From positions 24,522 to 88,521 of the forward strand of contig JASHQM010000040.1 in the NCBI GenBank assembly GCA_030039165.1: a stretch of DNA of 64,000 bases, in the 5' to 3' direction. This document shows, one piece after another, positions 1 through 29,971 of this stretch (positions are counted from its first letter, which is position 1; each line of letters begins with the position of its first letter). Below the pieces are notes generated by a model. The model was not told the origin of the DNA. It did not search any database and saw only the letters and a program-made list of their open reading frames with translations. The DNA is from Candidatus Sulfotelmatobacter sp. (GTDB lineage Bacteria; Acidobacteriota; Terriglobia; Terriglobales; Acidobacteriaceae). A program made the position numbers and the translations under genes.

Positions 1-255
1 CACGACAGGCTTCCGCCCTAAGTTACCTGGTTTGGTTACGTAATCGTCGTTAGAGTCCGCTCTTTCAGGACTCCCCGCGTTCTCCGTGCCGGTTGCAGAA
101 GTAAGTGCCGCTCGTCCCCCCGAATCCACTTTACATTACCCTCGCTGCTGACCGTGAGGCATCTGGTCCGGTCAAACATGGTTGGGTACGTTAGCGCTAC
201 AAGGACTACCCGCACTCGCGCGTCCTTCGAATCGCACCTTCGAGAGGTCTTAATC

Positions 256-7728: not shown

Positions 7729-7851
7729 GAACATCTTCCCCAGGAATTGTGGCCTAGAACGGCGCATAGCGAGTTCCCCATCTGCCGGACCTCCGGCAGC
7801 TTTCTCAAATTTAAGTAATGATGTAATTTGGGGGATTTTTACTGCGCCGCT

Positions 7852-11982: not shown

Positions 11983-12105
11983 TTTGCACTCCCCCTAAAC
12001 GTTGATTAAGTTATTTGTTGCCCGAAAATCGCGGTTGCGACTTCCCTTTTTTCTTTCTTCAAGACTTTTCTTCCCGCACAAGGTGATCTACCGTCTCATC
12101 GCTGG

Positions 12106-13668: not shown

Positions 13669-14753
13669 CTTCCTTCCTTCAACGCCTGCAACACGCCGTC
13701 GTACGCAGGCTTTTTCCTGTATTCGTCGTCGAACAACACAGGCTTGGCGTCGGGCAAAGTGTTCCAATCTCTCGTGCGCAGCCAGGTGTAGCGGTCCGCG
13801 ATGCCCCAGGTCATCAAACCGATGCAGTTCGCATCCTGTAAGCAGGCATGTACGATGTTGTAGAAAACTTCTTTCTGCTTGGCAAAAGCTTCGGCCGAGT
13901 CTGTCGGACCCTGGTAAACGTCCATTTCGGTAACGTGCACCTTTACGCCCGCCTCGCGCGCGTTGCGCAAAAATTCCTTAAACTCGTCGAGATACGTCGG
14001 CCGCAGTTGCGGCATCTCCCAGTGCATCTCAGTCCCCACTGCGTCGATCGGCGCTCCCTCCGCTTTCAGGCGCTTTACTAAAGCCCAGAACTCGTCGGCA
14101 CGTTTCTTGTCGATCCCTCCCTGGCCGAACGTGTCATTCAGCATGAGCAAGGCATCGGGCTTTGCCGCTTCGCGCGCATATTGGAACGCTTTCACCATGT
14201 ATTGGTCATCGCCCAGAATTCGCGACCAGCATCCGTTGTGATTGGGTTCGGTCGGCTCGTTGACTACTTCCCACGCGTAGTAACTGTCGCCGCCATGGTG
14301 GACAACCGCCTGAATCTGTTCCTTTAGTATCTCGTCCAGATCCTTCGGCGACCATCCCCCGCAAGTGCCATTATTAAAGTTCAGCCAGGGCGCGGAAACC
14401 GCATTTTTGTAAACCAGGCAGTGTCCCATGAGCTTCACATCGTTTTGCCGGGCAAAGCTCACGGCCTCATCCATCGGGTCCCAGTTGAAGTCCCCGCGCC
14501 GGGGCTGCGTAATTCCTTGAAAAACAATGGAAACCGCGGCATTGAATTCGCGCGCCAGGACCGGCCTGTATTCCGGATCGCGGTTCCACATGCGTCCCTG
14601 AATGGTCGTGCCAACGTAGAAATGGAGCTTGTCGGCGGCCTGGCGCAGGGTTTGGCTGTCGGACCCGGCATCCTTGCTCTGGGGGAATGCAGCAGGCAAA
14701 AGCGCCACCATCATCGCCAGAACAGGCACGATTTTCTTGAGTACTAAAGTCAT
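13665..14753 (-). CDS. secreted glycoside hydrolase family 10 (endo-beta-1,4-xylanase-type)
   Basis: Signal-like MTLVLKKIVPVLAMMVALLPAAFPQ. GH10 acid/base YAWEVVNEP and nucleophile VHVTEMDV are both intact. WG(I/V)ADRYTW near the C-terminus. Confidence 0.85.
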   Translation of the reverse strand: MTLVLKKIVPVLAMMVALLPAAFPQSKDAGSDSQTLRQAADKLHFYVGTTIQGRMWNRDPEYRPVLAREFNAAVSIVFQGITQPRRGDFNWDPMDEAVSFARQNDVKLMGHCLVYKNAVSAPWLNFNNGTCGGWSPKDLDEILKEQIQAVVHHGGDSYYAWEVVNEPTEPNHNGCWSRILGDDQYMVKAFQYAREAAKPDALLMLNDTFGQGGIDKKRADEFWALVKRLKAEGAPIDAVGTEMHWEMPQLRPTYLDEFKEFLRNAREAGVKVHVTEMDVYQGPTDSAEAFAKQKEVFYNIVHACLQDANCIGLMTWGIADRYTWLRTRDWNTLPDAKPVLFDDEYRKKPAYDGVLQALKEGR

Positions 14754-14789: not shown

Positions 14790-15686
14790 TTACGCCTGCA
14801 CTTCGGCAATCTCTTCACGCTGCGCCGGCGTCTCCAAACCCGCAGGGTAGCCGGTGCGCTGCAGCGCATCTGCAGCGTATTTCCCGACCATCTCGATCTG
14901 TGCCGCGTTCAGCTTTTCGCGCCAGCCGCCGACCGAGCCAGAGCGCACGAAGCGCGCGTCTTCCTTGTCGATGCGATGCTTGCGCAACAGTGTTCCCTTG
15001 CCTAGCGTGGCGCCGGAGGTCTTGGCCTTTTCTTCCTTCTCGCGCATGGCACGGAGAGAGTTGTTTTCGATGGCGCGGCGGATCAAATTGCGATCGGCCG
15101 GAATCCCCAGGAATTCGAGCATCTCCACCAAACCGGGCTCGGTATCGGCACGCAAATCCTCGTACCGCACTACCAGCAGATTGCCATTCTTCGCCAGTGC
15201 GCAATCCAACCACGAGTTCACATGTTTCTGCCATGAACCGAAGCGGGTGACTTTGCCTTTGAGGAAGTTTTCGACATAGCCATCCATTCCCCGGCCCTGA
15301 TCGAAGTACTGCGAGAAACCCATTTCCTTGTCCCGCGCCCAGTTCGAGAGCATCACATCGCGGAGATCGCGGATAAGGTAGATCGCTCGCTTGTAGACGG
15401 GACGGTACATATAGTGCGTCTTGATCAGCCGCCCGCCATTGGGCAAGGCCGGCTTCATCTTCATATGGGTGCCGAGCTCGGGCAGAATCTGGTTTACGTT
15501 CAGGAATCCTGCATTGTCTTTGGTAAGAATCTCCATGAGGACAAAACGCAGCCAGGTGTTACCTGAACGCTCGAACGACGCCAGGTATGTGTCCCTATCA
15601 TTGAGGCCGCGGTGCTCCCACCATCCTTTGGGAGCGCGGAGTTTGGTTCGCGATGCCCGGAAACGTAGTTCTTTCAGTTTGTTCAT
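14790..15686 (-). CDS. sulfotransferase domain protein
   Basis: 5'-PSB SFERSGNTWLRFVL, 3'-PB YLIRDLRDVMLSNW, and a C-terminal RSGSVGGWREKL-type motif. ATG 15686 lies 7 nt after the flippase stop codon (15694-15696); GTG 15704 is an alternative. Confidence 0.85.
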   Translation of the reverse strand: MNKLKELRFRASRTKLRAPKGWWEHRGLNDRDTYLASFERSGNTWLRFVLMEILTKDNAGFLNVNQILPELGTHMKMKPALPNGGRLIKTHYMYRPVYKRAIYLIRDLRDVMLSNWARDKEMGFSQYFDQGRGMDGYVENFLKGKVTRFGSWQKHVNSWLDCALAKNGNLLVVRYEDLRADTEPGLVEMLEFLGIPADRNLIRRAIENNSLRAMREKEEKAKTSGATLGKGTLLRKHRIDKEDARFVRSGSVGGWREKLNAAQIEMVGKYAADALQRTGYPAGLETPAQREEIAEVQA

Positions 15687-15693
15687 GAGGAGA

Positions 15694-17079
15694 TTAACCT
15701 TCACCTTCCAGAACAGGATTCAGCACCGGCGGTGTCTGCGATTTGCGTTGCAGAATATACATCGAGATCAGAAAAGCGGCGATGTTGGCGATGATGAGGC
15801 TCACAACTACGCCCCATAACCCAAACCACTTCGTGGCTGGAACGCCGACCAGCAAAGATAAAATGCTGGCTGCCAGTCGCGCCCAAAAAATGGAGTCGGG
15901 CGATTCGATGGCGCGCAACAGAATTGCAGGGCCAAAAGCCGCGCTCCACAACGTGGTTCCGATCGCCACGTAGGGAATGAAGTGGGCGACCTCCATATAC
16001 TTCCCCCCGTACAGCAGGTGAAACACCGGAACCTTCAACGGAATCAGCACCGCCCAGTAAGCGAACGCGCCGCCAACGAACAGCATGATGATTCGCCGCA
16101 CCAGCGGCCCTGAGGCCGAGATCCCATGCTGGCGGCAGATGCGCGCCGCGTAGGGCAGAAACAAAATCGACAGCGCCGTGTAGCTCTGCTCCATGGGCAG
16201 CGACAAATTCATGAGCGCGCGCAACTGCCCCGCTTGCGCCATCCCACCGAATGCGCTGACCAACGGGTAATACATGTAGTAGGGAATCCAAGTCACCACC
16301 GAAACCGCCAAAGCCCACCGTCCGTATTCCCAATGCTTGTGCCACGCCTGGCTGCGAGTGGGAGGAGTCCCCGTATCCGGCGGCAGAACCTTGTTGATCT
16401 GCGAGAGCAGGAAGAAGCCTGTTCCAACCGCGCCCAGTGCCATCAGCAGATATGCAGAAAAAGGCGACATCAGCGCGCGCTTGTAAGCGACGAACAAGCC
16501 GCCAGTGACGACCACGAAGTAAATGAACGCCCCAACCGTCGCCCGCGCCGGAGCGAGGTTCATATAGAACGAGCGCCGCATCAGCCAGAAAAACAGAATG
16601 CAGGGCGAGGCGATGGCCACGCCGGCGAGTGCTCCCGGCAGACCCCCGTCTTTGCCCATGGCTGCGGCTACAGCCGCTGCGCCGCCCAGCAACACCACTC
16701 CGAAGAGCGTAAGAATCAGGTGAATCCCGAGCAGCGTCTTCAAATACCCGCGCAGCGCCTTGCTATAAGCAGATCCGCTAAACACCGCCTGCGGTTCGGC
16801 CAGGAACGACTGATACACATAGGAGAGCAGCAGGAAGATCGAAAACGCCAGCGCGAACGCGCCGTATTGATCCTGTGTGAGCCAACGCGCCAACAAAAGA
16901 CTGACCAGAAAGTTAGAACCGGAAATCAGCCCCTGATCGAGAATGGCGAGGCCGCCTTTGGTGACCCAGCGGGCAAGTCTTCCGCCCGGGGGCGTCGCGG
17001 ACTCTGTTTCAGCCAAAACTGCGCCGGCGGCGTTGGCCAATTCCGCATCGAGGAGTTCTTCTGTCTGGGACAAGCTCAT
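15694..17079 (-). CDS. Wzx-type oligosaccharide flippase (MOP superfamily polysaccharide biosynthesis protein)
   Basis: About 12-14 TM helices. N-terminal LAILDQGLISGSNFLVSLLLARWLTQDQYGAFALAFSI is typical of the family. ATG 17079 avoids a 70-nt overlap with the NRPS gene. Confidence 0.8.
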   Translation of the reverse strand: MSLSQTEELLDAELANAAGAVLAETESATPPGGRLARWVTKGGLAILDQGLISGSNFLVSLLLARWLTQDQYGAFALAFSIFLLLSYVYQSFLAEPQAVFSGSAYSKALRGYLKTLLGIHLILTLFGVVLLGGAAAVAAAMGKDGGLPGALAGVAIASPCILFFWLMRRSFYMNLAPARATVGAFIYFVVVTGGLFVAYKRALMSPFSAYLLMALGAVGTGFFLLSQINKVLPPDTGTPPTRSQAWHKHWEYGRWALAVSVVTWIPYYMYYPLVSAFGGMAQAGQLRALMNLSLPMEQSYTALSILFLPYAARICRQHGISASGPLVRRIIMLFVGGAFAYWAVLIPLKVPVFHLLYGGKYMEVAHFIPYVAIGTTLWSAAFGPAILLRAIESPDSIFWARLAASILSLLVGVPATKWFGLWGVVVSLIIANIAAFLISMYILQRKSQTPPVLNPVLEGEG

Positions 17080-17107: not shown

Positions 17108-20100
17108 TCACTGCTGCATCTCGACGGCAATCGGGCTAAACAACGTCGGCGCGGTGACGGAAGATTCACGATGGACACTCGACTGATCGAGAGCCCGCGC
17201 CAGTTCTTCGCCCAGAAATCTGACCTGAGGCTCTTTCAACAAACTCAGGTGATCCCCGCTAATCTCGCGCAGATCGACTCCGCCCGCGGCCATGCGCCAC
17301 CAGATCGCATAGGGATCATCGAGGCTGCCGGCCGATTTTTCCTTCACTCGAAACAATGTCACGACGCCATCGTAAGGCTGAACATCGTACCCGGCGGCGG
17401 CTTTCGCGCAGGCCCGCTGCACCGCCCGCAGCGGCTTCGGCAGCATTTGCAACTCGATCCGCTTGCCCAGCGTCATCAGCACAAAGCCGCCCTTCTTAAT
17501 CAGGAACGTGGCGGCTTCTTTAAATGGCAGCTTTCTCAGATTGCGCAGCGCCGAAACTCGCGATTCCATCTTGCCGGGATAAGTATCGAACAGCGCGAGC
17601 AGGCTGACTTCCTCATCCTTCGCCTTCAACTTCTGTGCCATTTCGTAGGCCACCAGCCCGCCGAAGGAATATCCGCCAATCCGGTACGGGCCTTGCGGCT
17701 GCACGCGGCGAATTTCCTGGATATACCGTTCGGCCATCTCATGGATGCTGGCCAAGCACGGACGCTTGCCGTCGAGACCCTGCGGCTGAAGCGCATAAAA
17801 TGGCTGATCTTCACCCGTATGCCGCGCCAGATCGCGAAACCCGACCACGTTCCCGCCAACGCCATGGACGCAGAAAAACGGTGTGCGCGACCCCTCGGAC
17901 TGGATTGCCACCAACGACGACCACGAAGCCGAGCCGCCTTCCTGCCGTAGTTGTGTTGCGAGCTGTTCGATTGTCGGAGCTTGTAACAATACCGCCAGTG
18001 GCAGGCGTTGGCCGAATGTCTGCTCGATGCGGTGCATCAGGCGCGCGGCCAGCAAGGAATGCCCGCCCAGATCGAAAAAATTGTCGCGGGTGCCGACCCT
18101 GTCCTTGCCCAGAACCATCGCCCAGATTTTCGCGAGCTGAGCTTCAAGTTCGTCCTTCGGTGCGACATATTCGTTGGGCTCGGTGAAATCGCCCGTCCGC
18201 GGCGCCGGCATGTTGCGGCGATCGACCTTGCCGTTGGGCGTCTTGGGCATGGCTTCGAGCAATACGAAGGCCGCAGGCACCATGTAATGGGGAAGTTTCT
18301 GTTTCAGATAAGTACGTAGTTCGCTGCCGGTAGGTGTCTGATCACGGGAGGGGACAACATAAGCCACAAGAGTCTTCTCGCCCTTCTCTTCCCGCGCAAT
18401 GACCGCAACCTCGCGTGTGCCTGAGTGCGATCCCAGCACCGACTCGATTTCCTTAAGCTCGACGCGGTATCCGCGAATTTTTACCTGGTCGTCGGTGCGA
18501 CCGGCAAATTCGATGTCGCCGTTGGCCAGATATCTTGCCCGGTCGCCGGTCTTGTACATGCGCGCGTTCGGCTCAGGGCTGAAGGAATCCTTTATAAACT
18601 TTTCAGCCGTGATCTCCGGACGATCGTGGTAGCCACGCGCCAATCCGGGGCCGGAGACGTAAAGATCGCCGGCAATGCCGATAGGCAGTTGTTGCAATTG
18701 CTCATCGAGAATATAGATCTTCGTGTTGGCGATAGGACGGCCAATGGGCAGCGTAGCCGGGATTTCTTCCCAGTCCTTTGGCTCATGGGCAGTCACGATC
18801 ACGCTGGTCTCCGTGGGGCCATACGTATTCACCCAGCGCACCCCTGATTTCGCCAGCGTGTGCCACGCGGCCAAAACAGTTAACGACGCTTTTTCACCGC
18901 CCACAATAACCATACGCAGGCTTTCGGGCAAACCGCGCGTCGGATCAGAAGCTGCGGCTTCAGAGAGCTCGCCAACCAGTTCGTGCCAATATGCCGTGGG
19001 AAGATCGAGGACGGTCACCTGCCGCTCGCTCACCCAGCGCAGGAAATCGCTAATGGCAAGCGATGCGTCCTCCTCGCGAATCACGAGCGCGCCGCCGGAA
19101 ATCCAGGTGGGAAAAATCTCTTCAATAGCAATGTCGAACGAAATCGACGCGAACTGCGCCATGCGGTCGGCTGGAGTCAGTCCGTAAAGCTTCACCGCCG
19201 CGCAGCTGTGGTTGACCAGGCCAAGATGGTTGAGCAGCACGCCCCGCGGCTTGCCGGTCGAACCCGAGGTGTAGATCACGTACGCCAGATTTTCCGGCGT
19301 GACTCCGCTCGTGACTGCATCAGGATTTTCGCCGGCGAATGTCTTCCAGGTGGCATCGAGCGCGATCACTTCCGCATCGAAATCTGTGACCTCGGCGAGC
19401 AGTCCTGGTTGCGTGAGCAGAACCGTGGTCTGAGAATCCTCCAGCATGTACGCGAGGCGTGCTTTCGGATATGCAGGATCGAGTGGTACACAAGCAGCGC
19501 CCGCCTTAAGCACGGCCAGCAGAGTCACGGGCAGTTCCAGCGATCGCCGCAGGCAAATCCCGACTTTCGATTCTGGCCCGACTCCGCGTTTTCTCAAGAA
19601 GTGCGCCAGTTGATTGGCGCGGCGATCAAGCTCGCGATACGTGAGCCTCTGATCGCCATGCTCGACCGCTATCGCGCCGGGTGTTCGCGCCACCTGCGCT
19701 TCCACCAGTTCGTGAATGCAACGCTGATTTGGAAATTCGGTTTCCGTCCTGTTCCATTGCTCAACTTGCTGTTTTTCCGCCGCTGTCAGCATGGGCAAGC
19801 GCGAAATTTTCTTGTCGGGGTCGGCGACGATCGCTTCCAGCATCATTTCGAGATGCCCTGCCATGCGCAACATCGTCGCAGCGTCAAACAGGTCGGTACT
19901 GTAAACGAATCGGCCCAGTAACCCCTCGGGACGGTCGTCGAGCTCCAGGTCAAGATCGAACTTGGCCGTTCCGATCTCCAGGTCCAGCTGGTTTAAATCC
20001 CAGCCGGCTTCGAATTTCGGCGTCGGCGGCACCAGCGAGAACATTACTGGGAATAGCGGGTTGCGGCTCGTGTCGCGACGAACGGACAGTTCTTCCACCA

Positions 20101-22612
20101 GTCTTTCGAATGGCGCATCGTCATGCGAGAGCGCCTCCAAGGTCACTTCGCGCGTGTGAGCCAGAAACTCGCGAAAAGTCGGATCACCCGGGAAGTTCAA
20201 GCGCAACGCCAGCGGATTCTGAAAGCATCCCAGCAACTTCTCCAGTTCCGAGCGCTTGCGTCCGGAGGTAACCGTACCTACGATGAAATCCTGCTGCCCG
20301 CTGTAGCGGCGAAGCAGCGCCGCAAACCCCGCCAGGACAATCGTGAAGAAGCTGGTGTTTTCTTCCGACGCGAGCTCGTGCAGGCGTTCGGAAAGGCTAT
20401 GAGAAAACGCGAAGCGCTGCATGGCTCCGCGAAAGCTCTGCATGGCGGGCCGTGGACGGTCGGTGGGCAAGTCTAGAACCGGCAGCTCTCCATCCAGCTG
20501 TTGAGACCAGTAAGCCCGTGATGCATTTAACTGTTCGCTGGCCAGCGTCTCACGCCGCCAGCGTGCGAACTCGGGATATTGCAGCGGCAGTTCCGCAAGC
20601 GGCGATGTTTCACCGGCAAGGAATGCATTGTAAACAGTCACGAGTTCCGGCAGAAAGACGCGATAAATCGAGAACCCGTCGAAAATAATGTGATGGAGGA
20701 ACAGATAAAGCCGGTACTCTTCCTCATCCAGCCGCACCAGCATTGCGCGCAGCAGCGGGCCATTTTCCATGTCGAATGGCTCCCTGGCTTTTTCCTGAGC
20801 CATGCGAAGAGCCTCTGCTTCCCTCCGCTCGAGCGGCAACTGCCGCAGATCGGCCGCCGCAATGCCCATCTCGTACGGCTGCCGCACGATCTGCATAGGT
20901 TGCCCGTCGATCACGCAGAAAGTCGTGCGCCAGGCTTCGTGCCGGCGGATGATTTCGGCCAGGGCGCGCTCCAGCACGGCGAGGTCAAGTGGCCCGCGGC
21001 GATATACGGTTACCGACTCGTTATACAAATCCTTCGCGAACTGGCCGTGCAGCCAGATTTGTTGCTGCGCGAAGGATAGCGGTGCCGGTCCGCGATCGGT
21101 GTGCGTGGAGGGCGTAGTGGTTCTTTCCGCCGATCGCGCCTGAAGATATTTTCGAATCAACTCTTGTTTCGCATCGGTCCCCGCATCTGTCGCGGGTACG
21201 ACGTTTTCACTCTTTTCCTTTGCGCTGGAGTGAAGCGAGCCAAATGGACAGCCTCCCGGCGCAGCGGTTGCAGCTGCGGCATCCATCCGCTTCGCCGGTG
21301 CGCTGGACAATGCGACGGCGGATTTTCCGGCCAGCTTGACCTTCAGTGATTTCAGCCCGCGCAGCCCAAGGTTCGATCTCCACTCGATCGCCTGCGGCTC
21401 CAGCTTAATCTCGCGGAAACGCCGCAGCAAAGACTCGAAGACCACCTGCCCTTCCACGCGCGCCAGCGGAGCCCCAAAGCAGAAATGCGCCGCGTAGCCG
21501 AAAGCCATGTGGCGATTGTCTTTACGTGTAATGTCGAAGCGGTCGGGATCGGGAAAGCGCTCGGGATCGCGATTGGCGGCAGCCATCACGGCGATCACCG
21601 CCTGCCGCTTGTGAATCAGCTTTCCGCCCATTTCGCGCTCGGATGGGCAGATGCGCGCCGTGTGCTGGCTGGGGCTTTCGTAGCGCAGCATTTCCTCGAC
21701 GGCCGATGGAATCAGCGATAAATCAGCCCGCAGCTTTTCCATCTCCGCAGGATTGCGAAACAGAGTCAGTAGGCCGTTTCCAATCAGATTCGTGGTCGTC
21801 TCCTGCCCACCGACCATGGTGACAATGCAGTTGGCGATGACTTCTTCTTCCGTCAGCCGGTCGCCGTCAATTTCAGCGGTCATCAGCGAGTGGATCAACC
21901 CCGGCCGCGGATGCTCGCGCTCTGCGCGGATGGCATTCTGGAAATACTCCACCAGGTTCTCGACCGCTTTCAACACCCGAGGATAACGCTCGGGATTGTG
22001 CTGGAAGTTGCCCAGCATCTCGGCGAAATCCGCCGACCACGTTTTCAGTTTGAAATGATCTTCGGTTGGAACGCCGAGCATTTCTGCAGTAACGATTGCG
22101 GGCAGCGGCTCGGCTAAATCAGCGATGGCATCCATTTCGCCGCGCTTCTCAATGCCATCGAGCAAGTGGTTGACGATGTCCTGAATGTGATCGCGCAGTT
22201 CCTCAACCCGGGCCGGCGTGAAAGCCTTCGATGCTAACCCGCGCAGACGCGTGTGCGCAGGCGCATCCATGAATAACATCTGCTTCACCATCACTTGGGC
22301 AATCGGGCCCAGCGACGAGAGTCCCATCTCATCGAGTTGCGCAGGCGTGGGCGTGCGATCGGCGGAAAAGTTCAGCAGAACTTCCATCACATCGGAATAG
22401 CGTGTCACCACCCAGGCGTGCAGGAACGGATCCCAATGCACTGGATCTTCCGAGCGCAGGCGGTGAAACAACGGATAGGGATTGGCCAGCACCTCGGGGT
22501 CGAGGAGGTGATAGAGGCTCAGCGCCGCGTCCCGGTTTTCCAGACGTGGTGGAGTTTTTGTGCTATTGGACACTGCTGGCGTGGTCTCCAGAAAAGCGGG
22601 CTTGGGCGGCAA
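17108..22612 (-). CDS. non-ribosomal peptide synthetase, domain order cytochrome P450 - C - A - T - TE
   Basis: 1834 aa. P450 (aa 1-~430): I-helix MVGGQETTTN, ExxR EEMLRYESP, heme loop FGYAAHFCFGAPLA (Cys378 = nt 21479-21481). Then a ~80-aa Ala/Ser/Thr-rich linker. C domain HHIIFDGFS (nt 20678-20695). A domain LAYVIYTSGSTGKPRGV, YKTGDRARY, GRTDDQVKIRGYRVEL, PNGKVDRR. T domain FFDLGGHSLL (Ser1519 = nt 18056-18058). TE domain GYSFGG (Ser1649 = nt 17666-17668) and GDH. First in-frame start is TTG 22612; GTG 22576 is an alternative. Confidence 0.95.
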   Translation of the reverse strand: MPPKPAFLETTPAVSNSTKTPPRLENRDAALSLYHLLDPEVLANPYPLFHRLRSEDPVHWDPFLHAWVVTRYSDVMEVLLNFSADRTPTPAQLDEMGLSSLGPIAQVMVKQMLFMDAPAHTRLRGLASKAFTPARVEELRDHIQDIVNHLLDGIEKRGEMDAIADLAEPLPAIVTAEMLGVPTEDHFKLKTWSADFAEMLGNFQHNPERYPRVLKAVENLVEYFQNAIRAEREHPRPGLIHSLMTAEIDGDRLTEEEVIANCIVTMVGGQETTTNLIGNGLLTLFRNPAEMEKLRADLSLIPSAVEEMLRYESPSQHTARICPSEREMGGKLIHKRQAVIAVMAAANRDPERFPDPDRFDITRKDNRHMAFGYAAHFCFGAPLARVEGQVVFESLLRRFREIKLEPQAIEWRSNLGLRGLKSLKVKLAGKSAVALSSAPAKRMDAAAATAAPGGCPFGSLHSSAKEKSENVVPATDAGTDAKQELIRKYLQARSAERTTTPSTHTDRGPAPLSFAQQQIWLHGQFAKDLYNESVTVYRRGPLDLAVLERALAEIIRRHEAWRTTFCVIDGQPMQIVRQPYEMGIAAADLRQLPLERREAEALRMAQEKAREPFDMENGPLLRAMLVRLDEEEYRLYLFLHHIIFDGFSIYRVFLPELVTVYNAFLAGETSPLAELPLQYPEFARWRRETLASEQLNASRAYWSQQLDGELPVLDLPTDRPRPAMQSFRGAMQRFAFSHSLSERLHELASEENTSFFTIVLAGFAALLRRYSGQQDFIVGTVTSGRKRSELEKLLGCFQNPLALRLNFPGDPTFREFLAHTREVTLEALSHDDAPFERLVEELSVRRDTSRNPLFPVMFSLVPPTPKFEAGWDLNQLDLEIGTAKFDLDLELDDRPEGLLGRFVYSTDLFDAATMLRMAGHLEMMLEAIVADPDKKISRLPMLTAAEKQQVEQWNRTETEFPNQRCIHELVEAQVARTPGAIAVEHGDQRLTYRELDRRANQLAHFLRKRGVGPESKVGICLRRSLELPVTLLAVLKAGAACVPLDPAYPKARLAYMLEDSQTTVLLTQPGLLAEVTDFDAEVIALDATWKTFAGENPDAVTSGVTPENLAYVIYTSGSTGKPRGVLLNHLGLVNHSCAAVKLYGLTPADRMAQFASISFDIAIEEIFPTWISGGALVIREEDASLAISDFLRWVSERQVTVLDLPTAYWHELVGELSEAAASDPTRGLPESLRMVIVGGEKASLTVLAAWHTLAKSGVRWVNTYGPTETSVIVTAHEPKDWEEIPATLPIGRPIANTKIYILDEQLQQLPIGIAGDLYVSGPGLARGYHDRPEITAEKFIKDSFSPEPNARMYKTGDRARYLANGDIEFAGRTDDQVKIRGYRVELKEIESVLGSHSGTREVAVIAREEKGEKTLVAYVVPSRDQTPTGSELRTYLKQKLPHYMVPAAFVLLEAMPKTPNGKVDRRNMPAPRTGDFTEPNEYVAPKDELEAQLAKIWAMVLGKDRVGTRDNFFDLGGHSLLAARLMHRIEQTFGQRLPLAVLLQAPTIEQLATQLRQEGGSASWSSLVAIQSEGSRTPFFCVHGVGGNVVGFRDLARHTGEDQPFYALQPQGLDGKRPCLASIHEMAERYIQEIRRVQPQGPYRIGGYSFGGLVAYEMAQKLKAKDEEVSLLALFDTYPGKMESRVSALRNLRKLPFKEAATFLIKKGGFVLMTLGKRIELQMLPKPLRAVQRACAKAAAGYDVQPYDGVVTLFRVKEKSAGSLDDPYAIWWRMAAGGVDLREISGDHLSLLKEPQVRFLGEELARALDQSSVHRESSVTAPTLFSPIAVEMQQ

Positions 22613-24434
22613 CTTTGGCGAGGATGAGTTCCTCGATCTGCGAAGACATTTCAGCCACGGTAGGATGGTCGAACAGTTTAAGCAGAGTCAGCTCGACTCC
22701 GAAGGTTTCGCCGACGCGGGCGATCAACTGTGTCCCCAGCAGCGAATGGCCGCCGAGGAGGAAGAAGTTATCGTTAACTCCGACGCGCTCAAGTTTGAGC
22801 AAGGGAGCCAGAATCCTGACCAGTTGTTCTTCAACCGGCGTCCGGGCCTCGACGTAAGCCGCAGAGTTGCGCTTGCCATTCGGACTGGGCAGCGCCGCCC
22901 GATCGACCTTCCCATTGGCCGTCACGGGAATGCTGTCAATGGGAACAAACTGCGCCGGCACCATGTAATCGGGCAGGCTTTTGCGCACGTGATCGCGGAG
23001 TTCGTTCGCCTTTACCTTCGCGCCCGCAGCGGGTACCACGTAAGCGATCAATTCCTTTTCGCCAGGCGTATCTTCTTTGGCTATCACGATGCTGGCCCGC
23101 ACCGAAGCATGCTGATTCAAGACAACGGCGACCTCGCCCGGTTCGACGCGATAGCCGCGAATCTTGACTTGCTCATCGACACGGCCGAGAAATGCAATCT
23201 GGCCATCAGGCAGGCGCTTGCCCAGATCTCCGGTGCGATACATCCGCGCATTGGGTTCAGCGCTGAAGGGATTAGGACTAAATCTCTCCGAAGTTAAGTC
23301 GGGCCGATTGCGGTATCCGCGCGCCAGACCCGCGCCGCCGATATATATTTCACCGACTGTTCCTTCCCGGACGGGCCGTCGGTGATCGTCCAACAAGTAA
23401 ACTTGCACGTTGTCGATCTCCCGGCCGATCGAGGGTTGCTGCCCCGCCGAACTGTTTGGAGAAATCACTCCCGAGGTAGCAACTACCGTCGCTTCCGTTG
23501 GACCATAGTTATTGACCAACGCGAACGGCAGCCATGGCGAAGGATATGTTTTTAGCGTATCGGCGCCGGTGAGCAGGAATCGCAGAGATGTTTGCTTCGG
23601 CCATTCCATCTGCATGAGGCTTTCGGCGATGGGCGTGGCGGCAAAAGAAATAGTGATATGGTTCTCAATGATCCAATCTCGTAGCGTTTTTGTGTCATTG
23701 CGCACGGCATCGTCGGCGAGATGCACGCTCGCGCCACATGTCAGATATGGCCACAACTCCCAAACCGCGGCATCGAATCCCAGCGCCGCCGTGTGGCTGG
23801 CGCGGTCCGCCGAAGTGACTTGAAATGCGCGTTGGTGCCAATCGACGAGATTCACCAACCCAGCATGAGTAAGTTCTACACCCTTGGGCTGGCCGGTCGA
23901 GCCGGACGTATAAATAATGTAGGCAATGTCCCTCGGCATGGCGCCGTTTTCGGGCTGCGCATCGGGCTGGGCAGCGATTTTGGCCGCATCGGCGTCGACG
24001 GTCACAACCTGCCACGAAGCGGCGGCAAGCTTTTCAGTCAACTTCGTTGTGCTGACTACGACGCGGGCATCGGCATCGCGCAGCATAAAAGCAAGTCGCG
24101 TCACTGGCTGCGCGGGATCGAGCGGAATGTAGGCGCCGCCGGCTTTCAGAATCGCCAGAGCGGCAATTACCATGTCGGGAGTGCGTTCGAGATACAGGCC
24201 GACGGGCACATCTCGCGCAACGCCGAGCGTGCGCAGATAATTCGCCAGGCGATTGGCGCGGCGGTTCAATTCCTCATAAGAGATGATCTTCTCTCCCCGC
24301 GAAACAGCCGCAGCGGCTGGCTTAGCCTTTGCCTGGCGCGCCACGCGTTCGTGCACGCAGAGACACTCCTGGGCGGTCGCCGGATTCGACTCGTTCATCT
24401 CCATTCGAAGATCCAAGGCCTTGGAAGAGTGCAT
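22563..24434 (-). CDS. non-ribosomal peptide synthetase loading didomain (A - T)
   Basis: 623 aa. IAYIIYTSGSTGQPKGV, NNYGPTE, YRTGDLGKR, GRVDEQVKIRGYRVEPGEV, ANGKVDR. T domain FFLLGGHSLL (Ser564 = nt 22743-22745). No C, E or TE domain. Confidence 0.95.
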   Translation of the reverse strand: MHSSKALDLRMEMNESNPATAQECLCVHERVARQAKAKPAAAAVSRGEKIISYEELNRRANRLANYLRTLGVARDVPVGLYLERTPDMVIAALAILKAGGAYIPLDPAQPVTRLAFMLRDADARVVVSTTKLTEKLAAASWQVVTVDADAAKIAAQPDAQPENGAMPRDIAYIIYTSGSTGQPKGVELTHAGLVNLVDWHQRAFQVTSADRASHTAALGFDAAVWELWPYLTCGASVHLADDAVRNDTKTLRDWIIENHITISFAATPIAESLMQMEWPKQTSLRFLLTGADTLKTYPSPWLPFALVNNYGPTEATVVATSGVISPNSSAGQQPSIGREIDNVQVYLLDDHRRPVREGTVGEIYIGGAGLARGYRNRPDLTSERFSPNPFSAEPNARMYRTGDLGKRLPDGQIAFLGRVDEQVKIRGYRVEPGEVAVVLNQHASVRASIVIAKEDTPGEKELIAYVVPAAGAKVKANELRDHVRKSLPDYMVPAQFVPIDSIPVTANGKVDRAALPSPNGKRNSAAYVEARTPVEEQLVRILAPLLKLERVGVNDNFFLLGGHSLLGTQLIARVGETFGVELTLLKLFDHPTVAEMSSQIEELILAKVAAQARFSGDHASSVQ

Positions 24435-24450: not shown

Positions 24451-25902
24451 TTATGCCGCGCCCGAACCTTTCAAAACAGCGGGGACTGTTTTGGCGAGAA
24501 TTTCCAAATCAAGCCACAACGACCACGTCCGTATGTACTGCAAATCCAACTCCATCCATTTTTCGAAAGGAATCGAACTGCGTCCTTTGATTTGCCAGAG
24601 GCAGGTAATGCCCGGGCGCACGCTGAAGCGGCGGCGCTGCCAGTCCTTGCCGAAGGTATCGAACAACTCGTAATCGCGCACCTGAAGCGGACGTGGACCG
24701 ACCAGGCTCATGTCGCCTTTCAGCACGTTGAACAACTGCGGAAGCTCATCGATGCTGGTCTTGCGCAGCAAGCGGCCGACGGCCGTAATCCGCGGATCGT
24801 TCTTGATCTTGAATACCGGCCCGCTCACTTCATTCTGGTGCTCGATTTCCTTCAGCCGCTCTTCGGCATCGATGACCATGGTTCGGAACTTGTAGATGTC
24901 GAACATGCGCTTGTTGCGCCCCAGCCGTTTCTGCACAAAGAAAATCGGACCCAGGCTGCTGAGCTTGACCATGATGGCGGTCAATACCAGGACGGGCGAA
25001 AGCACCACAATCGCCATCGCGGAAACCACAATGTCGATCAGCCGCTTGATCGCCAGGCCCCAGGCGTCGACGATGGTGCTGTCGTGTCCAATTAGCAGCT
25101 CGTCCTCATGCCCGAAATCGTCGGCCCGGTGTTTAGCTTCTTTCAGGTCGAAGATGTTGGGCATGAATCGCACGATGATGCCTTGTTGTTCGCAAGCGGC
25201 TGCAATCCGCGAACCCAGCCCATGGAATGATCGGATAGGTAAAGCTATGACGATTTCATCCACAATGTTCTTGCGCAGGTATGCGGGCAGAGATTCCAGG
25301 TCGCTGACCAGCGAATAGCCCTCTGTCCTGAACCCGTCAAGCCCATTCCACTGTTCATCAGCAAACCCGAGAATCCTGTAACCGAGTTCGGGCCTAGCCT
25401 GAATGCGTTTCACCAGAGAGAGGGCCCTTGAGTTGGTGCCGATGATGAGAAGATTGCGCGCGTTGTGTCCACGCCGCCGGGCGTAAGCAAGAGTGGCGCG
25501 AATCAGCACGCGGCTCAGGATTACCGCTCCGGTGGTCAACAGCCAGAACAGAACCAGGAAGATGCGGTTTACCACCCAAATCTGGAACACCAAGGCCGTG
25601 AGCGCAATTACGAACGTTCCCAGGGTGGTCGCCGCTACGATATCGCGAAATTCATCCCGGCGCCGCGACAAGCGCTTCGACCCATAGAGGCCAAATACAT
25701 TAAAAAGGATGTGCCATACCAGCATGAAGCTGAGGAACAACAACAAATTGCTGAGCTTCACACGCATGGAGAAAAACTCGGTCAGCGTTAGCCTGTGTAC
25801 CCGATGGAACAGCGGCAGGGTCGATACCATGAATGCCGCCACCATCAGCAGCAAGTCGAAAACCTTCATCCCGGTTGAGAAAACCTTGCGGTCAATGCCC
25901 AT
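24451..25902 (-). CDS. polyprenyl-phosphate sugar-phosphate transferase (WbaP/EpsB-type priming glycosyltransferase)
   Basis: N-terminal TM helices, then KRLIDIVVSAMAIVVLSPVLVLTAIMVKLSSLGPIFFVQKRLGRNKRMFDIYKFRTM and DELPQLFNVLKGDMSLVGPRP (bacterial sugar transferase domain). Confidence 0.9.
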   Translation of the reverse strand: MGIDRKVFSTGMKVFDLLLMVAAFMVSTLPLFHRVHRLTLTEFFSMRVKLSNLLLFLSFMLVWHILFNVFGLYGSKRLSRRRDEFRDIVAATTLGTFVIALTALVFQIWVVNRIFLVLFWLLTTGAVILSRVLIRATLAYARRRGHNARNLLIIGTNSRALSLVKRIQARPELGYRILGFADEQWNGLDGFRTEGYSLVSDLESLPAYLRKNIVDEIVIALPIRSFHGLGSRIAAACEQQGIIVRFMPNIFDLKEAKHRADDFGHEDELLIGHDSTIVDAWGLAIKRLIDIVVSAMAIVVLSPVLVLTAIMVKLSSLGPIFFVQKRLGRNKRMFDIYKFRTMVIDAEERLKEIEHQNEVSGPVFKIKNDPRITAVGRLLRKTSIDELPQLFNVLKGDMSLVGPRPLQVRDYELFDTFGKDWQRRRFSVRPGITCLWQIKGRSSIPFEKWMELDLQYIRTWSLWLDLEILAKTVPAVLKGSGAA

Positions 25903-26015: not shown

Positions 26016-26276
26016 CTACTTCTTTGACTTCGCAATCACCAAGCGTTCAATGGCATCAACGCTTTCCAGGTTATCGTGAGTGATCTCTTCGTCGCCTACG
26101 CGAATCTTGAATGTGTCTTCCAGAAACGCCACCAGTCGGAAAATACCCATGGAATCCATAATGCCGTTCTTGGTCAGGATTTCCTGATCCGTAATCTGAT
26201 TGATGCCCTTGGTTTTGGCGAACTCGTCCAGCACGTACTGGCGAATCTGGTCTTTGGCTTCTGTGGTCTGAATCAT
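26016..26276 (-). CDS. acyl/peptidyl carrier protein
   Basis: 86 aa. Phosphopantetheine site GIMDSMGIFRLVAFLE (DSxG). Good RBS (GGGAG 5 nt upstream of the ATG). Confidence 0.85.
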   Translation of the reverse strand: MIQTTEAKDQIRQYVLDEFAKTKGINQITDQEILTKNGIMDSMGIFRLVAFLEDTFKIRVGDEEITHDNLESVDAIERLVIAKSKK

Positions 26277-26426
26277 GTTCTCCCTCTAAGAGTGTGGTGA
26301 TTGTATTTCGCGAGTGCAAAAAACTGTATGGCCTGTTCGTGTGGTAACTTTCGGTCATCTGAACCATTCGCCGGTCCACAACCGGTTCCAGATCCCATGA
26401 AAAGCCGCACGGAGCTGTGCGCCCGT

Positions 26427-28001
26427 CTACCGCACCGCCATGGTTTCTTCTTTCAATTTGACCCGATCGATTTTGCCGGTTGAGGTCTTGGGCAGCTCCC
26501 CATGAAAATCGATGAACTCCGGAATCATGTATTTCGGGACCTTGGTTGAGCAGTGCTGCTGCAGGTCCAGCGGTTTCAGTGAATCGGCGACATTCAGCGA
26601 TATAACAGCACGGATGCGGTTTCCCACGACCTCGTCAGGAATCGCCAGCACGGCCGCCTCTTTGACTCCCGGATGGCTCAACAACGCGCTTTCAATCTCA
26701 CCCAGCTCGATGCGGTAGCCGCGGCTTTTGATCATGCTGTCGCGGCGGCCCTGGAAATAAAAATTGCCGTCTTCGTTGACCGTAACCAGGTCGCCGGTAC
26801 GGTACATCTTTTCCTCGAAATTCTCCTGAAAGTGGTTTGGCACGACCATTTTTCGGGTCTTTTCGACGTCGGCCCAATATCCATAAGTGACGGCCGGGCC
26901 GCGAACGCAGAGTTCGCCGCTTTCACCCACGCGGGCGATGCGGCCATCATCAGTAACAGCGAATGCGTCGGTGTTGGCACAGGCAATGCCGATGGGCAGT
27001 TTGTCCATACTGGCGAGACGCTCGCGCTCGACTTTGTAATAGGTGCAGACGTTGGTTTCCGTCGGACCGTAAAGATTGTAGAGATCGGCTTGCGGCGCCA
27101 TTTCCGCCAGTTGGCGCAGATACTTCATGGGGAAGACTTCGCCGGCAAATAGGATCGTTCGCAGGCTCGCCAGCTTCTCCGGCGTCAGCCGTGCGTGCAG
27201 CAGCAGAAGCATCAGCGCAGAGGGCACCGAGTACCAGATCGTGATCTGTTTTTCCTGAATGAACGCGGCGAGGCTGGTAGGAAAGAGCGCCAGCTCCTCG
27301 GTGATCAGGTAAACTGTCGCACCCGCCTCCAGAGCGTTGTACACATCAAAAACTGAGAGATCGAAGTGCAACGGCGCGTGATTGGAAAGCTTGTCTCCGC
27401 TGCGCACCTGAAATTCCTCCGCGCACCATTCGACAAAGGTGAGCGCATTCTGGTGGCTCAGCATCACGCCCTTCGGGCGGCCGGTCGAACCCGAAGTATA
27501 AAGAATGTAAGCGATATCAGTTTCGATGGACGTTCCGTTCGGCGCCCGATCGGCAGGAAACTCCGCCAGATCAGACCACGGGATCATCCTGCCGCTATTG
27601 CCGTTCTCAGGCTGATCGGTCGAGATGCAGCAGTCGAGCAATTCGAGCGTTTCCGGCGAAAGCGCCTGCCGCTTTTCCTGGTTCGTAATCAACACGCGAA
27701 TACCGCAGTTGCCGATGATGTAGCACACGCGATCGGCCGGGGCCTGGGGATCGAGCGGAACGTACACTCCCCCGGCCTTTAATACGCCCAACATGCTGAC
27801 GATGGACTCGACGCACTTGGGGAAAAACAATCCCACGCGATCGCCTTTGCCGACCCCCTGTTCGCGCAACAGGTGAGCGAGTTGATTCGAGCGTTGCTCC
27901 AGCTCGCGATACGTAAGACTGCGGCCGCGCGCCCAGACGGCTTCCTTCCCCGGATATTTCTTTGCGCTCCTGCTCAGTAGTTGCTGTAAGACGTATGCCA
28001 T
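26427..28001 (-). CDS. stand-alone adenylation enzyme (DltA-like / amino-acid or acyl-AMP ligase)
   Basis: 524 aa. IAYILYTSGSTGRPKGV, NLYGPTE, YRTGDLV, GRRDSMIKSRGYRIELGEIE, STGKIDR. The FDLSV...W.S.PS...LF.GE architecture resembles DltA-type free-standing A domains. Confidence 0.9.
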   Translation of the reverse strand: MAYVLQQLLSRSAKKYPGKEAVWARGRSLTYRELEQRSNQLAHLLREQGVGKGDRVGLFFPKCVESIVSMLGVLKAGGVYVPLDPQAPADRVCYIIGNCGIRVLITNQEKRQALSPETLELLDCCISTDQPENGNSGRMIPWSDLAEFPADRAPNGTSIETDIAYILYTSGSTGRPKGVMLSHQNALTFVEWCAEEFQVRSGDKLSNHAPLHFDLSVFDVYNALEAGATVYLITEELALFPTSLAAFIQEKQITIWYSVPSALMLLLLHARLTPEKLASLRTILFAGEVFPMKYLRQLAEMAPQADLYNLYGPTETNVCTYYKVERERLASMDKLPIGIACANTDAFAVTDDGRIARVGESGELCVRGPAVTYGYWADVEKTRKMVVPNHFQENFEEKMYRTGDLVTVNEDGNFYFQGRRDSMIKSRGYRIELGEIESALLSHPGVKEAAVLAIPDEVVGNRIRAVISLNVADSLKPLDLQQHCSTKVPKYMIPEFIDFHGELPKTSTGKIDRVKLKEETMAVR

Positions 28002-28096
28002 GAATTACCGCGCCCTTTTTGATCTCAGTGGTTGCCGTTGTGAGTTGGGGGGAATAACAAAAATGCGGGATAGCCACCTGCAAAGATTACGCAGCC

Positions 28097-29239
28097 TTAC
28101 AGGCCTTGCATGTTGGCGATGATCACGCGATGAATCTCGGAGGTTCCCGAGTAGATTGTTCCCGCAATCGCGTCGCGCAGTTCACGCTCCAGTTCGTATT
28201 CGGTCGTGTATCCGTAGCCGCCGTGAATCTGAATAGCGTCGAGGCAGCTTTGCACGCAGGCCTCGCTCACGTAGACCTTGGCAATCGACGCTTCGCGCAG
28301 CGGATGCCGTCCCTGGCTCTTCATCCACGCCGCTTTGTAAAGGGCTAAGCGGCCAGTCTCCAGCCGGATATCCATCTCCGCGATCTTGTTGTTGATGGCG
28401 GGAAACTTCCCGATGGGTTCGCCAAACTGCTTGCGCTCCTTGGCGTACTTCGTGCAGGTTTCCATGATGCGCTGCATGGCGCCCAGATGGCTGGCCAGGA
28501 TGCAGATGCGCTCCCATTCCATCGACGAAGTAAAAACCGCCTGGCCGCCAAATTCTTTGCCCAGGAGATGCGACACCGGAATTTCGCAATCCTGCAGATA
28601 GATTTCCGCCATGGGCGAGGTGCGCAGCCCCATCTTGTGCAACTTCTTGCCAACCGTAAAACCCGGGGTGCCTTTATCGACGAGGAATGCTGTCACTCCG
28701 TTCGGCCCGCGCGAGGGATCCAGATTCGCGAAAACGATGGTTACATCCGCGTCAGGAGCATTGCTGCTGAATGTCTTCGAGCCATTGAGCACATAGCAGT
28801 CACCGTGGCGTTCGGCCCGGGTTTTCAGGCTGTAGGCGTCCGAACCGGAGCCCGGCTCGGTCATCGCATGCAAGCCGAGTCCCCCGCTGACCAGTCCCGG
28901 CAGATACTTGCGTTTCTGTTCTTCGGTTCCGAATTGCCAGATGGGAATCTCGGAACTCCACATGTGGGCGTTGATGGAAAAGATCAGGCCATTATCTTTG
29001 CAGCCATAACCCAGCATTTCGAGCGCGCCCACGGTGGTAAGCGTGTCAGCGCCGCCGCCGCCGTATTCCTGAGGAATGGGAAGTCCCTGAATACCGAACT
29101 TCGCGCATTTTACCCACAACTCGCGCGAGAATTCTTCGTTTTTGTCTCGCGTGATAATGTCATCATTCAGCTCTTCTTTGGCAAATCGCAAAACTTCTTT
29201 GCGAAATGCGGCCTGCTCATCATTCCATGCAAAGTCCAA
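28097..29239 (-). CDS. acyl-CoA dehydrogenase-family flavoprotein
   Basis: 380 aa, full ACAD layout. ...GLHAMTEPGSGSDA..., ...IHGGYGYTTEYELERELRDA..IYSGTSEI... (C-terminal catalytic Glu region). Confidence 0.9.
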   Translation of the reverse strand: MDFAWNDEQAAFRKEVLRFAKEELNDDIITRDKNEEFSRELWVKCAKFGIQGLPIPQEYGGGGADTLTTVGALEMLGYGCKDNGLIFSINAHMWSSEIPIWQFGTEEQKRKYLPGLVSGGLGLHAMTEPGSGSDAYSLKTRAERHGDCYVLNGSKTFSSNAPDADVTIVFANLDPSRGPNGVTAFLVDKGTPGFTVGKKLHKMGLRTSPMAEIYLQDCEIPVSHLLGKEFGGQAVFTSSMEWERICILASHLGAMQRIMETCTKYAKERKQFGEPIGKFPAINNKIAEMDIRLETGRLALYKAAWMKSQGRHPLREASIAKVYVSEACVQSCLDAIQIHGGYGYTTEYELERELRDAIAGTIYSGTSEIHRVIIANMQGL

Positions 29240-29305: not shown

Positions 29306-29971
29306 TTACGCCGATGCGGAGGTGGATGCCGCCGCATTCGCCGGAATCGCTGCCGGCGCCGCCTTCGCTTCAGCCCCTGGCAACTTCGCTTCAGCCGGGG
29401 CGTTTGCCACTTCCGGCTTCTTCACAAACCGCTGCGGACGCCCGCCCGGCAACTTGATTCGGGCCGGCACGCCCATGACCATCATGTTGTCGCGCACGTC
29501 GGTGAGCACCAGACTGTTGGCGGCGATCACCACGTTGCTGCCGATTTTGGCGTCACCAACGAGTTTCGCTCCCGGCCCGAAGTACACGTTGTCGCCAATG
29601 CCGCGGCAGGCGTGTGAAATCAGACATCCGGTCGCAATGGTGAAATTCTTCCCGATCTTCGTGGCGCCCAGGTTAATGGCGTACACGGAATGGATCACAA
29701 AGCCCGGGCCGATCTCGGCGCGAACGTCAATGTGCACGCTGGTGAAGACTTCCACAAACTTGCGCAAAAACAGCGCGGAAATTCTGAGCAACTGGCCAAC
29801 CAGCGGAATTTGCACGCCGCGCGCCCAACGGGAAAAGCGGTAGGCGACCACCGGCCAGGTCGCGTGCCGGATCATTCCTTCCAGCCGCTTACCCATGCTT
29901 GGTTGCCAGTTGGGATCGTTGCGGGTTTCGCGCAGCGCCCGGTCTATATCTTGACGAAGGTTCTCGAACAT
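29306..29971 (-). CDS. hexapeptide-repeat acyltransferase, serine O-acetyltransferase (CysE/EpsC)-like, with Ala/Pro-rich C-terminal tail
   Basis: IDVRAEIGPGFVIHSVYAINLGATKIGKNFTIATGCLI...GDNVYFGPGAKLVGDAKIGSNVVIAANSLVLTDV is a left-handed beta-helix. The last ~38 aa are low complexity (KKPEVANAPAEAKLPGAEAKAAPAAIPANAAASTSASA). Confidence 0.8.
   Translation of the reverse strand: MFENLRQDIDRALRETRNDPNWQPSMGKRLEGMIRHATWPVVAYRFSRWARGVQIPLVGQLLRISALFLRKFVEVFTSVHIDVRAEIGPGFVIHSVYAINLGATKIGKNFTIATGCLISHACRGIGDNVYFGPGAKLVGDAKIGSNVVIAANSLVLTDVRDNMMVMGVPARIKLPGGRPQRFVKKPEVANAPAEAKLPGAEAKAAPAAIPANAAASTSASA

Follow-up and report, generated by a model that had tools for sequence, protein, structure and literature searches.

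In the NovH/NovI, NikP1/NikQ and OxyD/BpsD cassettes, an adenylation–thiolation (A-T) didomain works with a cytochrome P450 (P450) that is a protein of its own, and P450sky of the skyllamycin nonribosomal peptide synthetase (NRPS), also a separate protein, acts on a residue bound to a peptidyl carrier protein (PCP). A different layout has been described for BsmF of bosamycin biosynthesis in Streptomyces sp. 120454, a P450-A-T protein that hydroxylates PCP-bound tyrosine (PMC8161544). In 2020 the authors of that study described such an integrated P450 domain as unprecedented among NRPSs, and reported that it does not carry a fingerprint of the OxyD/Sky32 type (PMC8161544). BsmF is the sole characterised NRPS with a built-in P450 that our literature search found. 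Here we analyse a 64,000-nucleotide stretch of DNA from a Candidatus Sulfotelmatobacter sp. of the Acidobacteriota (contig JASHQM010000040.1; hereafter the window), in which a P450 is joined in frame to a condensation (C), A, T and thioesterase (TE) module and follows directly upon a free-standing A-T gene. We found that this fusion has an intact frame, recurs in related genomes and is accompanied by a near-constant A-T partner with a leucine-type code. Based on this, we favour, with moderate confidence, an NRPS of two modules whose integral P450 would oxidise a leucine thioester held by the T domain of the upstream A-T protein (Leu-S-T1) before condensation.

The fused gene lies within an open reading frame (ORF; 17108..22612, reverse strand) of 1834 codons that is free of stops and encodes P450, linker, C, A, T and TE in this order. 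The maximal ORF opens at a TTG (22612) inside the A-T gene. The N-termini of homologous P450s begin about 30 residues before an NPYP motif, which corresponds to a GTG at 22573, and this codon has a GGAG 12 nt upstream; because the homologues and the DNA agree on the GTG, it is favoured over the TTG and is probably the true start, giving a predicted protein of 1821 residues. From this start the gene overlaps the stop of the A-T gene by 11 nt, which suggests translational coupling of the two, and the neighbouring genes are tightly packed or overlapping in an operon-like manner. In the numbering of the maximal ORF, Pfam matched p450 to residues 108–400 (E 8.7e-29; 101 bits for PF00067 against a gathering cut-off of 22.8), Condensation to residues 510–949 (E 2e-105), AMP-binding with AMP-binding_C to residues 971–1462, PP-binding to residues 1492–1553 and Thioesterase to residues 1578–1794. 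Chance cannot plausibly account for domain matches of this strength or for an open frame of this length. The P450 contains GGQETT in the I-helix (residues 268–273), EMLR as the ExxR motif (residues 307–310) and FGYAAHFCFG in the Cys-ligand loop (residues 371–380). The core motifs of the termination module are all present, namely HHIIFDG in the C domain (residues 640–646), YTSGSTGKPRG, an A code ending in K (Lys517), GGHSL, GYSFGG and GDH. An earlier note on this stretch, made without database searches, had described the in-frame fusion with its P450 and C-domain motifs, an ~80-residue low-complexity linker (residues 431–509) and a preceding A-T gene with no C domain; our analysis confirmed each of these points, including every motif quoted.

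Homologues of the P450 part number in the thousands, are 66–91% identical and come without exception from Acidobacteriota metagenomes or metagenome-assembled genomes (MAGs); most of these close homologues are free proteins of ~430 residues, while a Condensation domain accompanies the P450 in a few. In each of 83 related acidobacterial loci (80 loci taken from species-representative genomes; relatives occur in at least 559 genomes), we followed the reading frame onward from the P450 match; in 41 of them it continues into NRPS domains. These comprise P450-C-A-T-TE (19 loci), P450-A-T-TE (10), P450-C-A-T-C-A-T-TE (4), P450-C (4) and forms that are fused but frameshifted or cut by a contig end (4); the P450 is free in the other 42. 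A search with the P450/C junction returned only fragments that carry both PF00067 and PF00668, all of MAG or metagenome origin and none from a cultured strain. In a protein search with the P450-C region, the best 150 matches were all giant multimodular NRPSs that scored on their repeated C domains. The fusion was held to be rare in the earlier note, which is correct only among studied systems, whereas many acidobacterial genomes contain it. The chemistry that we propose for it is of an expected type.

The earlier note had also allowed that the fusion might be an assembly or frameshift artefact, and a recent inactivating read-through of two genes would be a related explanation. Both would be in line with the fragmentary state of several homologues in the protein collection and with the closest protein-database relative for which genomic context is available (L001; 84% identical in the protein search, 88% by tblastn), where the P450 and C-A-T-TE lie in different frames that overlap within the linker (11200..11450). 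Nevertheless, the fused loci derive from Illumina assemblies (palsa, SMAG, JGI) as well as long-read assemblies (MFD), and recurrence in such independent data, with one frame maintained over the junction, excludes a sequencing artefact. In addition, a conserved element persists between the domains and all catalytic motifs are intact. As the C-A-T-TE frame of L001 has no ATG near its start, it is this locus that is more likely the exception; its two genes may have been separated secondarily, the second then starting at a codon other than ATG, or the assembly may contain an indel error. Given the comparative evidence from the 83 loci, we rejected the artefactual explanation as highly improbable.

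When the P450 domains were placed in a neighbour-joining tree with BioI as root, all fused forms fell in a single clade, whereas the outer clades consist entirely of free P450s. In our reading, the fusion derives from an older and very widespread acidobacterial pair formed by a free P450 and an A-T protein of predicted leucine specificity. The unfused members found within the fused clade (L001, L031, L032/37/38 and L077) look like secondary splits; in L032/37/38 the downstream gene has a proper ATG. The P450-A-T-TE forms lack the conserved helix that precedes the C domain, and in L019 and L021 only the C-terminal half of a C domain remains. Loss of the C domain from a P450-C-A-T-TE ancestor would therefore be the simplest history for this form. 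The partial C domains of L019 and L021 (~11200..12000), together with L022, L027 and similar loci and the complete absence of the domain from the P450-A-T-TE forms, resemble a deletion series from P450-C-A-T-TE. A further variant (L002, 10001..16970; L007; L015) encodes a P450-C protein and a separate C-A-T-TE protein, and thus has one extra C domain. In the separate gene of this variant the C domain is 44–47% identical to that of the window, as against 71–82% for A, T and TE, which suggests that the C-domain region has been replaced. P450s that are 70–78% identical also occur at eight loci from MAGs carrying non-acidobacterial labels (L024, L040, L053, L055, L059, L061, L081 and L082; labelled Verrucomicrobiia, Binatia, Rokuibacteriota, Saccharimonadales, Methylomirabilota and Ktedonobacterales), which may be either mis-binned acidobacterial contigs or cases of horizontal transfer.

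The most consistent feature of the family is its upstream partner. In 80 of the 83 loci, fewer than 400 nt separate the end of an A-T gene from the P450 that follows it, and the remaining three are cut by contig ends. We extracted the specificity code of the A domain from a multiple alignment with GrsA, whose reference positions were verified against 1AMU, and obtained DAWFLGNVVK, which we take to be the canonical leucine code of Stachelhaus et al.; a pairwise alignment had given DAWTL-NVVK for the window protein and was discarded because of a misplaced gap. Across 81 aligned A-T didomains (80 loci and the window) the exact code was found in 76. Based on this code, the A-T protein is predicted to load leucine on T1, and the conserved partner of the P450 family is a putative leucine-loading A-T protein. 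By contrast, the downstream A codes differ from locus to locus: the window shares DIEDIGTVIK with its near relatives, other loci have DSACIAEVWK, DILALGMIWK (Gly-like) or DAMHVGGVSK, and some have no downstream A domain. A constant A-T partner alongside variable downstream modules supports action of the P450 on the upstream carrier-bound leucine.

We also considered that the substrate of the P450 might be held by the fused protein itself, either as the module-2 residue or as a dipeptidyl thioester on the second T domain (T2). BsmF provides a precedent, since it oxidises tyrosine on its own T domain (PMC8161544). The 10 relatives with P450-A-T-TE and no C domain have a load-oxidise-release layout, and the long flexible linker would allow the P450 to reach T2. 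However, the DIEDIGTVIK module is absent from many loci that retain the P450 and the A-T(Leu) protein, and in three loci (L052, L062 and L073), which encode the A-T protein, a free P450 and a free-standing C domain alone, T1 is the sole carrier domain. With no second T domain in these loci and a variable type of module 2 elsewhere, the constant partner is T1, and we regard action on T2 as unlikely, though worth keeping in view.

Action on Leu-S-T1 is also compatible with the features of the fused protein downstream of the P450. Its C domain is closest to the elongation C domains of Txo2, Txo1 and TycC PCP-C. In accordance with this canonical elongation type, the system would comprise two modules, the A-T protein being the one that loads the first residue. 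In module 2 the code DIEDIGTVIK places two acidic residues in the binding pocket and resembles the codes for lysine and formyl-hydroxy-ornithine, so that its substrate may well be a basic amino acid. An alignment of 19 fused proteins showed that most of the linker varies in length and composition, whereas its end is conserved with the consensus KQxLIxKYLQxR. In the window this helix-like element, KQELIRKYLQAR (21134..21169, reverse strand), is positioned just before the C domain, and we conjecture that it forms a docking site for the A-T protein. The linker also contains a GCP(F/Y) motif (21239..21256, reverse strand; GCPF in the window), which is conserved only in the nearest clade.

Based on these observations, we propose that the A-T protein would charge T1 with leucine and that the loaded T1 would be presented to the C domain at its donor side, where the conserved helix may dock it. 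The P450, predicted to be a class I enzyme of the CYP107/109/BioI-like kind and held to the canonical C-A-T-TE module by a flexible linker of ~80 residues, would oxidise the Leu-S-T1 thioester at the C domain, most likely before condensation, using electrons from a ferredoxin and a reductase encoded elsewhere in the genome. The C domain would condense the oxidised leucine with the residue of module 2, and TE would then release or transfer the product, which is probably made alongside, or attached to, an exopolysaccharide. On-line oxidation before condensation had been put forward in the earlier note, and the constant A-T protein and elongation-type C domain make it the most economical reading; the β-hydroxylation invoked there can be drawn from analogy only.

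To classify the P450 we compared it with solved structures, considering the best 60 of 393 PDB matches. The nearest is BioI (3ejb; E 8.4e-78, 38% identity), followed by enzymes that we take to be members of the CYP109, CYP267 and CYP107 families and by PksS, PikC and EryF. Going by the PDB codes that we associate with OxyD, P450sky and NikQ, none of these three appears among the best 60, and no curated NCBIfam P450 model matched the domain above its cut-off. A grouping with the NovI/NikQ/OxyD/P450sky clade, which the earlier note had set as a check, was thus not upheld. Because the P450 does not group with OxyD, P450sky or NikQ, β-hydroxylation specifically is unproven and a matter of pure analogy, and oxidation at other positions or desaturation is equally open. 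On the other hand, the failed grouping says little on function. The P450 of BsmF reportedly lacks an OxyD/Sky32 fingerprint and yet hydroxylates PCP-bound tyrosine (PMC8161544). BioI (CYP107H1), the best solved match, takes a substrate tethered to an acyl carrier protein (ACP), 3ejb being the complex with acyl-ACP. BioI cleaves a fatty-acyl chain on the ACP of fatty-acid synthesis, whereas the window has no fatty-acyl-loading gene and the partner of its P450 is an NRPS T domain with a leucine code; at 38% identity BioI is no orthologue, although the JGI pipelines label many family members “pimeloyl-ACP synthase”. An alignment of 36 homologues showed no variation in the acid-alcohol pair (ET), the ExxR motif or the Cys loop, and given the intact ET pair and Cys loop an ordinary oxygen-activating P450 is expected. 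An AlphaFold2 prediction of the P450 domain gave a poor model (mean pLDDT 65.6) from a low-diversity alignment of 36 sequences.

These same comparisons bear on the possibility that the P450 is carrier-independent and oxidises the product after its release, a polysaccharide intermediate of sugar or lipid nature, or a pyrrole/proline unit, in which case the fusion would serve only co-expression and stoichiometry. Its nearest relatives among the best PDB matches are of the CYP109/CYP107 type, which we take to hydroxylate free small molecules; the domain falls outside all curated families, and the gene lies within a polysaccharide operon. Strict adjacency to the A-T(Leu) gene and repeated in-frame fusion to NRPS domains in dozens of species would nonetheless be hard to explain without a physical partnership, and the pair of P450 and A-T(Leu) persists in loci where the proline trio described below is absent. 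We therefore consider this explanation improbable.

Several points weigh against oxidation of Leu-S-T1 as we propose it. The leucine assignment derives from a single source, the Stachelhaus code. The P450 is set apart in sequence from the known aminoacyl-PCP β-hydroxylases, both in the PDB ranking and against NCBIfam, and the docking role of the linker helix is conjectural. The P450 runs straight into A-T, as it does in BsmF, in the 10 relatives of the P450-A-T-TE type, where it could act on the carrier domain of its own protein. The fusion is moreover dispensable, as about half of the family and a few members of the fused clade have separate genes. Finally, no ferredoxin or reductase gene was identified in the window. 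Genes for a phosphopantetheinyl transferase or an MbtH protein were likewise absent from the window, and Rfam and tRNA scans of it gave no matches.

The fused gene is located in a co-directional, tightly packed block on the reverse strand (~34356 to 7852), a setting that the earlier note, whose interpretation is supported in part, overlooked. In the direction of transcription the block encodes Poly_export (Wza-like), Wzz, an AAA ATPase, a P-loop kinase-like protein, a hexapeptide acyltransferase, an enzyme of the acyl-CoA-dehydrogenase fold, a free A domain, a putative 86-residue carrier protein, a priming glycosylphosphotransferase, the A-T protein, P450-C-A-T-TE, a polytopic membrane protein, a sulfotransferase, a GH10 protein, Wzy_C, an epimerase, a WecG-type and a GT4-type glycosyltransferase and a second sulfotransferase. 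With Poly_export, Wzz, the P-loop kinase-like protein, the priming transferase, Wzy_C and glycosyltransferases encoded co-directionally, the locus is by its gene content a Wzx/Wzy-type exopolysaccharide operon. The priming transferase gene sits between those for the carrier protein and the A-T protein, and both the operon order and this position of the priming transferase among NRPS genes are kept in L001–L017. At least one homologue of the polysaccharide genes of the window occurs within 10 kb in 59 of the 83 loci. In L052 (7845..17321), L062 and L073 the free-standing C domain (510 aa) is followed by a membrane protein, GT2 and Wzy_C, and no TE is present. The membrane protein encoded directly after TE in the window is possibly a Wzx-like flippase. 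The two sulfotransferases and the GH10 protein suggest that the polymer is sulfated; a hydroxyl installed by the P450 would be a possible target of sulfation as well. Large Ig-like-repeat proteins flank the operon end (4465..7767, reverse strand; 154..2601, forward strand), one with Cep192/ASH/HYDIN-like and DUF1573 domains and the other with He_PIG, and these may be surface or matrix proteins. The coordinates of the features discussed are collected in the table.

Table. Features of the fused gene and its surroundings in the window, with the evidence used to assign them.
Feature	Coordinates	Strand	Evidence or motifs
Fused gene P450-linker-C-A-T-TE	17108..22573	-	ORF, Pfam, homologue N-termini
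Cytochrome P450 domain	21323..22573	-	GGQETT 21794..21811; EMLR 21683..21694; FGYAAHFCFG 21473..21502
P450-C linker, ~80 aa	21086..21322	-	variable, low complexity; alignment of 19 fused proteins
Condensation domain, canonical elongation type	19766..21085	-	HHIIFDG 20675..20695
Module-2 adenylation domain	18227..19702	-	code DIEDIGTVIK
Module-2 thiolation domain	17954..18139	-	GGHSL 18038..18067
Thioesterase domain	17231..17881	-	GYSFGG 17657..17674; GDH 17240..17257
A-T loading-module gene, 623 aa	22563..24434	-	Pfam; without C domain
A domain of A-T gene	~22908..24341	-	code DAWFLGNVVK
T domain (T1) of A-T gene	~22641..22829	-	GGHSL 22725..22754
Acyl-CoA-dehydrogenase-fold protein	28097..29239	-	best NCBIfam: prolyl-PCP dehydrogenases PigA, RedW, below cut-offs
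Free-standing A domain, 524 aa	26427..28001	-	code DLFYLALVCK; PltF best single-domain PDB match, 369 bits
Putative carrier protein, 86 aa	26016..26276	-	DSMG serine motif; PP-binding 17 bits, below cut-off 20.8
Priming polyprenyl glycosylphosphotransferase	24451..25902	-	TIGR03025 421.6 bits against cut-off 295.55
Polytopic membrane protein, 494 aa	15694..17178	-	directly after TE; L001 orthologue with faint Polysacc_synt_3 match
Sulfotransferases	14790..15704, 7852..8919	-	
GH10 glycoside hydrolase	13665..14753	-	

Three consecutive genes upstream of the priming transferase (26016..29239, reverse strand) look like a system for converting proline to a pyrrolyl-S-PCP. The dehydrogenase-fold protein scored 419 bits against PigA (cut-off 500) and 413 bits against RedW (cut-off 650), PltF, the nearest single-domain structure to the free A domain, is an L-prolyl-carrier-protein ligase, and an 85-residue gene is conserved at the position of the carrier protein in relatives. 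The layout resembles that of PltF/PltL/PltE, and also of RedM/O/W and PigI/G/A, which convert L-proline to pyrrolyl-2-carboxyl-S-PCP; in contrast to those systems, the window trio scores under the curated cut-offs and belongs to a polysaccharide operon rather than a pigment or antibiotic cluster. No evident enzyme to pass a pyrrolyl unit on was found in the window. The hexapeptide acyltransferase that adjoins the trio (29306..29971) is a candidate transfer enzyme.

DltABCD in D-alanylation and AlmEFG in lipid A glycylation are carrier-protein-based systems for the decoration of surface glycopolymers, and VibH is a free-standing C domain that acylates a soluble amine. The window locus resembles the former in having an A domain and a carrier protein among envelope and polysaccharide genes, and the free-standing C domain of minimal relatives such as L052 resembles VibH; no transferase of the DltB/DltD or AlmG type was found. 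We tentatively raise the possibility that the NRPS genes, the tethered P450 and the proline trio act together as exopolysaccharide tailoring machinery rather than as a separate antibiotic cluster. In this machinery TE, or in minimal relatives a VibH-like C domain, would move a small oxidised-leucine acyl or peptidyl unit onto the lipid-linked sugar repeat, at one of its amino or hydroxyl groups. Decoration of the polysaccharide by the NRPS product is compatible with the gene context but not proven by it, and we think this proposal rather doubtful as it stands. If true, nonribosomal peptidylation of a sulfated polysaccharide would be a glycopolymer modification so far undescribed and widespread in soil and peat Acidobacteria. 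A literature search combining Acidobacteria, NRPS, P450 and exopolysaccharide returned nothing relevant. A recent peatland meta-omics study reported Acidobacteria as the phylum contributing most to the transcription of biosynthetic gene clusters (PMC13642348). The presence of NRPS genes in polysaccharide operons points to a possible connection of the extracellular matrix with nonribosomal peptide chemistry.

In one natural family, the same P450 is thus found free or fused to C-A-T-TE, to A-T-TE or to a lone C domain, always with the predicted leucine-loading A-T protein adjacent. Such a series may serve as a “Rosetta stone” for the unsettled question of how P450s recognise carrier-bound substrates, and could guide the engineering of tethered oxygenases into assembly lines. 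Of the characterised systems, BsmF is the closest in architecture, as it also has an N-terminal P450 fused to NRPS domains through long linkers in a single polypeptide. Yet BsmF is a stand-alone, actinobacterial P450-A-T protein with neither C nor TE that makes free 5-OH-Tyr, which is freed by a separate hydrolase, whereas the acidobacterial window protein carries its P450 before C-A-T-TE and after a separate A-T(Leu) protein; the two are likened by architecture and not by P450 sequence. In the A-T and P450 cassettes and in the skyllamycin system the P450 is a separate protein of a different sequence group, while that of the window is fused and nearer to BioI, CYP109 and CYP107. The order of A-T followed by P450 that defines the NovH/NovI, NikP1/NikQ and OxyD/BpsD cassettes is nevertheless the invariant core here too, and, like P450sky, the window P450 would act on a residue that is held on the assembly line.

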